18,167 nt of DNA, from the IMG/VR virus record IMGVR_UViG_2671180353_000009, positions 1-18,167 of that record. One strand, written 5' to 3'. The translations under genes and the position numbers were made by a program. Numbering within the stretch: the first letter of the stretch is position 1; each line of letters begins with the position of its first letter. The notes below the pieces were generated by a model. That model ran no database searches and was not told where the DNA came from. It worked only from the letters and a program-made list of their open reading frames with translations. The stretch comes from a virus. Lineage: Duplodnaviria > Heunggongvirae > Uroviricota > Caudoviricetes. Shown here piece by piece: positions 6,469-7,351 of this stretch.

Positions 6469-6795
6469 ATGGCAGTAAAGATTTCAGGTGTACTGAAAGA
6501 TGGGGCGGGTAAACCTGTCGTAAATTGTGCGATTGAACTGCGGGCCAGAAGAACCAGTCCGACCGTTGTGGCACACGTTGTTGCCACTTGCGTGACGGAC
6601 AATAACGGTGCTTATGTGATTGAGGCTGAGCCGGGGTATTACGAGGTTGCGCTTCACTGTAACGGCTGGCAGCCAACCCGTGTCGGGGATATTGATGTGG
6701 CACCGACTGATGCACCGGGGACACTGAACGCGTTTCTGAATGCACCAAAGGATGGTGATTTACGTCCGGAGGTGATGAAGTGTCAGCGCCAGTGA
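6469..6795 (+). pseudogene. Truncated side-tail-fiber N-terminal fragment (stf-like, ~108 aa, divergent allele)
   Basis: [16 protein letters not shown]... is homologous to the N-terminus of the full stf at 7352 ([16 protein letters not shown]...) but ends after ~108 codons; the track ORF starts at 6427, and I prefer the Met at 6469, which is conserved with the stf start. Confidence 0.55.
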
Positions 6796-6881
6796 TATAA
6801 GACGGTAATTCGCCATTTGGATTGTCCGCTCCACCCAACATGTTGTTTCCTTAAGGTTCTCACACCAGAAAGGACATCAAC

Positions 6882-7211
6882 ATGCTGAGCAGAGAGGACT
6901 TTTACATGATAAAGCAAATGCGCCAGCAGGGCGCGTACATCGTCGATATTGCGACTCAGATTGGTTGCTCTGAACGGACGGTCAGACGCTACCTCAAATA
7001 CCCTGAACCGCCAGCCAGAAAGACCCGCCACAAAATGGTTAAGCTGAAACCGTTTATGGATTACATCGACATGCGCCTGGCAGAGAATGTCTGGAATAGC
7101 GAGGTTATCTTCGCGGAGATTAAGGCAATGGGTTATACGGGCGGACGTTCCATGCTGCGTTACTACATCCAGCCCAAACGTAAAATGCGTCCGTCAAAAA
7201 GAACAGTTTGA
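6882..7211 (+). mobile_element. istA: IS21-family transposase IstA, N-terminal (HTH) fragment only; IS remnant
   Basis: MLSREDFYMIKQMRQQGAYIVDIATQIGCSERTVRRYLK...[25 protein letters not shown] matches the IS21-family IstA N-terminus as I recall it; the ORF stops where the catalytic core should begin. Confidence 0.65.
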
Positions 7212-7316
7212 GGTGTACTGGCAATAGCGGACACTACCATTTGTTCTTTTTGACGGACGCATTTTACGTTTGGGCTGGATGTAGTAACGCAGCATGGAAC
7301 GTCCGCCCGTATAACC
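7131..7316. repeat. Large palindrome: 75-bp arms (7131..7205 and 7242..7316) around a 36-bp spacer
   Basis: The last 25 codons of the istA fragment (GYTGG...PSKRT) are re-encoded on the minus strand directly downstream; the same peptide appears in minus-strand track ORF 7194..7502. Confidence 0.85.
7209..7251. repeat. 43-bp direct repeat, copy 1 (TGAGGTGTACTGGCAATAGCGGACACTACCATTTGTTCTTTTT)
   Basis: Matches 18096..18138 near the window end, as read by eye. Confidence 0.7.
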
Positions 7317-7351
7317 CAACCGTTTCAGGCGGGCTTTTTTGTGGGGTGAAT

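Follow-up and report, generated by a model that had tools for sequence, protein, structure and literature searches.

The side tail fibre (stf) region analysed here raises the question of whether a phage genome carries the scar of a rearrangement that brought two stf alleles together. Across the window, that is, the whole stretch of 18,167 nt that was analysed, the gene order is tail assembly I, J (763-4242), lom (4310-4909), a J C-terminal fragment (5013-5738), a second lom (5806-6405), an stf fragment, insertion sequence (IS) material, stf, tfa (10378-10962), and a 1484-aa gene annotated Avs2 in relatives. A sequence-only reading had attributed this order to an IS21-family insertion into one stf allele, after which an inversion or recombination joined in a second stf. 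We propose a different explanation, which as a whole has a probability of about 0.85 in our estimate. The window would consist of three contigs that were scaffolded in a short-read draft assembly of a Shigella sonnei isolate; two of the contigs would be the halves of one intact lambdoid prophage (prophage A), broken by the assembly inside the lom terminator hairpin, and the third would derive from a second prophage remnant (locus B). The scaffolder would have set this third contig between the other two, and gap closing would have shrunk both gaps to one N.

The window was compared base by base with CXEZ01000092.1 (GCA_001248785.1), an entire draft contig of 18,167 bp that was found by an exact-protein look-up with the full-length stf and has a gene layout identical to that of the window. 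Exactly two differences were observed: N stands at 4953 and 7319 in CXEZ01000092.1, and A stands at both positions in the window. Ambiguous bases were apparently turned into A ahead of the first-stage reading, which masked the scaffold gaps and made false junctions possible. Thus, the window is a scaffold of three contigs, and both novel junctions (4953 and 7319) are scaffold gaps. Contig X (1-4952, plus strand) contains tail assembly I, J and lom of prophage A and ends in the left half of the lom terminator hairpin. Contig Y (4954-7318, plus strand) is a misplaced piece of S. sonnei locus B and contains the J' C-terminus (5013-5738; the gene is called from 5025 in the public record), lom, the stf'::IS21::IS600 end and a short fold-back. 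Contig Z (7320-18167) begins with the right half of the prophage A lom terminator, which is followed on the plus strand by the ribosome-binding region and the full-length stf (7320-10378 in all). The terminator-like leader and the full-length stf (7352-10378) had been described as following the palindrome immediately; both are present, but their contiguity with it fails, because the N at 7319 makes this junction a scaffold gap with no read-through sequence.

When contigs X and Z were considered together, the sequence of a single prophage was recovered. Window positions 1-4952 matched positions 1501-6452 of an E. coli relative (L003) collinearly at 99.98% identity, and positions 7320-16385 matched L003 6442-15507, also at 99.98%, so that both matches include L003 6442-6452. 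The joined X and Z were collinear with E. coli S1-IND-02-A at 99.98%, and the plain J-lom-stf-tfa-avs2 order was observed in S1-IND-02-A, F5505-C1 and the other best relatives; the gene order of L004 was the same as that of L003. Relative to those E. coli genomes, the window carries a 2.37-kb insert (4953-7319) with an 11-nt direct repeat, CCGTTTCAGGC, on each side (4942-4952 and again 7320-7330). The left half of the hairpin at the end of contig X reads AGCCCGCC-GTTTCA-GGC, and CCGTTTCAGGC occupies the loop and right arm of the same hairpin. A direct-repeat copy of the lom-stf intergenic leader lies between the palindrome and the full-length stf, which encodes 1008 aa with a PF08400 (phage_tail_N) match at E=4e-71. 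These alignments show that the 11-nt 'duplication' is an unmerged overlap, in which contig Z begins with the sequence that ends contig X. The two contigs would be neighbours in the real chromosome, and merging them gives an intact J-lom-stf-tfa-avs2 prophage. We also considered the repeat as an IS target duplication, since 11 bp is the IS4/IS186 size; this was rejected, because the ends of the insert lack IS termini and the repeat is the X/Z overlap. The proposed joining of a second stf by inversion or recombination is likewise not upheld: the join is a single-N gap, and the second stf belongs to a different prophage, since its own lom and the left half of its terminator are at 4310-4952 and overlap the sequence from 7320 by 11 nt.

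Several further observations were made on contig Z. The 1484-aa ORF at 11500-15954 had no Pfam match, and the 99.98%-identical E. coli prophages annotate it as 'AVAST type 2 anti-phage system protein Avs2'; it occupies a cargo position directly 3' of tfa, and the tail-fibre/avs2 module was found in several E. coli with differing upstream phage contexts (L024, L025, L027 and L028). A full-length match to Rfam IS009 (RF02111; 225 bits) was observed at 10721-10919, within the 3' part of the tail fibre assembly gene. Downstream of avs2, at 16386-18095, the window departs from its closest relatives, L003 and L004, and matches E2528-C1 and ATCC 43886 as far as 17948; neither tRNA genes nor convincing ORFs were found in this interval, which is probably the prophage end or the flank of an attachment site.

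The origin of contig Y was traced by exact-protein look-ups with two junction-specific ORFs, which retrieved the same arrangement from ten long S. sonnei contigs (L005-L013 and L015), nine of them of about 4.8 Mb and one of these ten being CP010829.1, from S. sonnei FORC_011 (PMC5447701), where locus B is at about 1,859,800-1,876,100. In particular, window positions 4953-7251 matched positions 6072-8370 of the 4.8-Mb contig L005 with 2 mismatches in 2299 nt (99.91%). In all ten contigs, locus B adjoins ABC-3/ABC_tran/ZnuA (sit-like, sitABCD-like) transporter genes, away from prophage A. In the long contigs, the order runs from J, lom, stf' and istA' through a complete, oppositely oriented IS600 and the remainder of istA to a second IS600, a DUF4376 gene and then the sit-like ABC transporter genes. 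Locus B is a prophage remnant with a similarity of 93-94% to prophage A.

The stf fragment had been given as about 108 codons. An ORF of that length is indeed present at 6469-6795, but true stf homology covers only 104 codons (6469-6780, plus strand), which form a locus-B-type side tail fibre N-terminus (stf'); the last 4 codons run beyond 6780 into IS21 and reach a stop at 6795. The PF08400 phage_tail_N match (E=9.8e-37) covers residues 1-104, and when stf' is aligned with the intact L002 stf, the similarity is lost after GGTGATGAAG at 6780. A start of IS21 at 6772, as given by megablast extents, was rejected, because comparison with the flanks of other IS21 copies and with the uninterrupted stf places it at 6781. 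The assignment of the following fragment to an IS21-family istA held: on the plus strand, 6781-7208 is IS21 nt 1-428, in which the left terminus reads TGTCAGCGCC and istA is present with its initial 109 codons (6882-7208), and by BLAST it is 100% identical to the IS21 of L001, a plasmid with both IS21 and IS600. The IS21 of L001 is a 2131-bp element with istA and istB, annotated by PGAP as 'IS21-like element IS21 family transposase'. The istA' ORF (6882-7211; 109 codons) is 99-100% identical to annotated IS21 istA, and its TGA stop (7209-7211) is provided by IS600. Indeed, 7209-7251 is the terminal 43 nt of IS600 on the minus strand, with the right-end inverted repeat TGAGGTGTACTGGCAATAGCGGACAC..., and matches at 100% identity L001 2887-2845, a segment that immediately follows the IS600 transposase CDS. 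The comparison of the istA fragment and the spacer with IS elements, which the sequence-only reading had suggested, thus led to IS21 and IS600.

The intact locus accounts for what the window holds. In L005, a full 1264-bp IS600 lies at IS21 nt 428 with a 3-bp GTT duplication on either side; from nt 426 onward, IS21 continues as far as about nt 1100, where a second, 5'-truncated IS600 takes its place. From this second copy (L005 10265-11446), about 88 nt are missing at the left end, neither istB nor the right end of IS21 survives, and the two IS600 copies are inverted relative to each other on either side of the istA remainder. Neither the IS21 right end nor istB was found anywhere in the window, and the IS21 in locus B is a remnant rather than a complete element. 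As contig Y ends in a multicopy IS, the window contains no more of this IS21::IS600 unit than IS21 nt 1-428 and 43 nt of IS600. These observations bear on the suggestion that the IS material is a ~430-bp internally deleted IS21-family remnant with imperfect terminal inverted repeats near 6815 and 7225, to which the second stf was later added. The inverted match of 12 in 17 bases between 6815-6831 and the spacer, on which this model was based, was reached in 28 of 300 shuffles and is at chance level; its partner near 7225 is the terminal repeat of IS600, and the left terminus of IS21 is at 6781. IS21 is not internally deleted at this point: it is interrupted by IS600 at nt 428 and continues after the full-length IS600 in complete genomes. 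Thus, this model is refuted.

The disruption of an stf allele by an IS21-family insertion is the part of the earlier scenario that was confirmed, as the stf'/IS21 junction is common to the ten long S. sonnei contigs and to seven sister drafts. Thus, stf::IS21::IS600 is a genuine inherited feature of an S. sonnei prophage remnant, in which IS21 truncated stf and IS600 later interrupted IS21. Such nesting is commonplace in Shigella genomes, which are saturated with IS elements. Locus B does carry the stf fragment, the partial istA and the end of IS600; it is their placement upstream of the full-length stf that is not real. An identical IS21(nt 428)/IS600 junction was also observed in another S. 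sonnei draft (L014 7900-8378), where it adjoins an arsenic-resistance cluster with arsR/arsB/arsC and a truncated ArsP-like gene; the nested IS21::IS600 may be present at two or more loci, or the L014 contig may simply enter the common repeat.

We then addressed the palindrome. The inverted repeat had been described with arms of 75 bp around a 36-bp spacer; the repeat is perfect and the spacer is 36 nt, but the arms, at 7129-7205 and 7242-7318, are 77 nt each. Folded as DNA, the hairpin has an energy of -108 kcal/mol (z = -22.6). The spacer (7206-7241) consists of 3 nt of IS21 (GTT) and 33 nt of the IS600 terminal inverted repeat. A 14-nt stretch in it, TTTGAGGTGTACTG, resembles TTTCAGGTGTACTG of both stf starts; it is the IS600 terminus, and the resemblance was judged to be due to chance. 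By BLAST against L001, 7242-7318 is IS21 nt 425-349 in inverted orientation at 100% identity, and this match overlaps the IS600 match (7209-7251) by 10 nt, TGTTCTTTTT; thus, the fold-back starts at a natural 10-nt inverted repeat, in which AAAAAGAACA in IS21 (7196-7205) pairs with TGTTCTTTTT in IS600 (7242-7251). Both halves of this repeat occur in the intact locus of L005, and it was created by the insertion of IS600 into IS21. The left arm and the spacer are ordinary locus-B sequence, and only 7252-7318 is novel: 67 nt on the minus strand, the reverse complement of IS21 nt 349-415, which end at the scaffold gap. At the junction (7251/7252), the fold-back reads ...TTGTTCTTTTT followed by GACGGACG, and the IS600 continuation reads ...TTGTTCTTTTT followed by TTAAGCAGCC, the IS600 interior onward from 7251 being …TTTTTTTAAGCAGCC. 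All ten long S. sonnei loci have the IS21/IS600 junction and then IS600, without the fold-back junction, which was also absent from 5426 complete E. coli genomes. In exact-pattern scans of viral, genome and metagenome contig collections, neither the fold-back junction nor the junction of the palindrome arm with the prophage A stf leader (7318/7320) was found. The palindrome had been treated as a feature of the genome, one that long-read data might nevertheless dissolve; it lies at a contig end beside a gap, none of the other examined copies of the locus carries it, and it so disappears in the other isolates.

The borders of the contigs provide further evidence on how the window was put together. 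By maximal exact matches, the first base of contig Y is the first base of a 160-nt exact repeat (4954-5113, plus strand) common to prophage A (3458-3617) and locus B. The first 98 nt of contig X are also an exact repeat common to prophage A and locus B, and contig Z ends (18096-18167) 72 nt into an IS600 end. Thus, both outer ends of the window (1-98 and 18096-18167) are repeat-bounded contig breaks. Contig ends at repeat boundaries are the expected output of a de Bruijn graph assembler, whereas a biological breakpoint is not expected there. The stf' protein retrieved sister drafts of the same CX series in which paralogous J fragments (88-98% identity) are strung together at this locus, with single-N joins precisely at the segment boundaries (L016 2063, 3471 and 5627-5633; L017 2170; L019 2925), and one such N-joined J string gives a spurious 1919-aa ORF. 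Spurious long ORFs from these contigs (L016 33-5792, L017 33-2219 and L019; 1919 aa and 728 aa, without Pfam match) are present in protein databases. In a 454-bp sister contig (L022), L015 7742 is joined to 7975 at position 86 without N, with a loss of 232 bp in lom, which is either a real deletion or a further misassembly.

This pattern corresponds to what is known of one assembly procedure. The CX series is cited as the S. sonnei drafts of Holt et al. 2012 (PMC5447701), and the published Sanger pipeline for drafts of this kind runs Velvet, then SSPACE, and then 120 GapFiller rounds (Page et al. 2016, PMC5320598). Its improvement steps are restricted to reads that fail to map as proper pairs, the threshold for joining contigs falls to five read pairs, and the authors themselves state that the tools are greedy and that false joins are possible (PMC5320598). 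We infer the S. sonnei source and the use of Velvet, SSPACE and GapFiller from the accession series, the sequence identity and the gap style rather than from record metadata, and the false placement of contig Y would have arisen in one of these software steps.

The whole arrangement could also be real, as a 2.37-kb MMBIR-type templated insertion into the prophage A lom terminator by serial template switching, with the assembler having merely missed two junction bases. Replication would then have left prophage A within the hairpin and used 2.3 kb of locus B (J'-lom-stf'-IS21'-IS600') as template, before it snapped back at the 10-nt repeat to produce the fold-back and returned to a point 11 nt upstream of where it had left, with the 11-bp duplication as the result. 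Such a path accommodates the 11-bp direct repeat on both sides of the insert and the microhomology at the internal fold-back; contig breaks would also be expected at the borders of a segment that was then present twice in the genome. However, there are N gaps at both junctions, where adjacent de Bruijn graph nodes would overlap and merge without N, and there is no biological reason for a left breakpoint at the exact start of the 160-nt A/B repeat. Moreover, the sister assemblies show similar N-joined paralogue strings with other breakpoints, and neither junction was found in the other genomes searched. We therefore regard a real insertion as highly improbable, and the following considerations are based on the scaffold explanation.

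If the scaffold joins are artefactual, the fold-back itself can still have one of two origins. In the explanation that we prefer, it would most likely derive from chimeric reads used in greedy contig-end extension and not from the chromosome, and the right arm of the palindrome is very probably an artefact, of chimeric reads or of gap filling. Strand-switching chimeric reads at natural inverted repeats of at least 8 bp have been documented in sonication-based Illumina libraries (PMC10908179), and such reads would be enriched in an improvement step that draws only on reads that are not properly paired. Alternatively, the fold-back is real in the source isolate and results from an in vivo snap-back or template switch, in which a nascent or resected 3' end in IS600 snaps back on TGTTCTTTTT/AAAAAGAACA and copies IS21 backwards. 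The position of the junction, exactly at the 10-nt inverted microhomology, is equally expected from such an event. The assembler requires junction-containing reads, and the junction may have real read support in the source isolate; with the asymmetric spacer, the centre of the palindrome can be assembled, and a contig break is expected in or just past it, as assembly would halt inside an inverted duplication whose arm is its own reverse complement. Against this, the fold-back is missing from locus B in the ten long contigs of other S. sonnei and from every collection searched, and it extends for only 67 nt beyond the microhomology, ending at the gap. Long perfect palindromes are, in addition, SbcCD substrates and are poorly tolerated in E. 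coli, and the improvement step, whose use here we infer, is limited to the reads among which chimeras collect. A real fold-back thus seems unlikely to us, if clearly less so than the real insertion considered above. We also attempted to derive the arm from a Velvet hairpin: with the asymmetric spacer, the centre node ends at spacer end + k - 1, which needs k = 78. Velvet takes odd k, and the 72 nt of IS600 at the right end of the window suggest k of at least 73, with other values of k in the sister contigs. No other fold-backs were observed at gap edges in the sister contigs examined; thus, the fold-back is not demonstrably a recurrent product of the pipeline.

The composite resembles several known systems in part. 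Like the false joins described for short-read scaffolding (PMC5320598), it has single-N gaps at both junctions, contig ends at exact repeats between paralogous prophages, flanking contigs that overlap by 11 nt without being merged, and sister assemblies of similar make-up; unlike them, it includes a palindromic contig end, which is no described standard output of that pipeline. Its IS content is that of nested IS elements in Shigella prophage remnants, with the IS21 terminus TGTCAG..., the TGAGG... repeats of IS600 (IS3 family), the GTT duplication in the intact locus, and junctions common to many S. sonnei genomes; nothing in it is unusual, and the window carries only a part of either element. 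The fold-back is comparable with PDSM fold-back chimeras (PMC10908179), as the strand switch occurs exactly at a natural inverted repeat (10-nt stem, 36-nt loop) and the added sequence is the reverse complement of the DNA immediately upstream. However, PDSM was described for human capture libraries and at low allele fraction, whereas here the chimera is in a consensus contig, which it would have reached through greedy contig-end extension. Bacterial snap-back or template-switch inverted duplications (quasipalindrome-templated mutation and Salmonella tandem inversion duplications) share the short inverted microhomology at the junction and the lengthening of a short quasipalindrome to a long perfect one; they differ in that only an inverted copy of 67 nt is seen here, which stops at an assembly gap and is known from one draft contig.

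Taken together, the results indicate that the composite is not a real feature, and that its real components represent the routine IS decay of a Shigella prophage. The display of N as A hid two gaps, and a mis-scaffolded draft came to look as if recombination had left a scar, complete with a palindrome and an 11-bp 'target duplication'. When such drafts are mined for tail-fibre or J-gene rearrangements, single-N joins should be screened, as spurious fused J ORFs reach up to 1919 aa. If the fold-back were real, it would be a natural case in which nested IS insertions make a quasipalindrome that nucleates an inverted duplication, seeded in one S. sonnei isolate by the 10-nt inverted repeat that the insertion of IS600 into IS21 had produced by chance.
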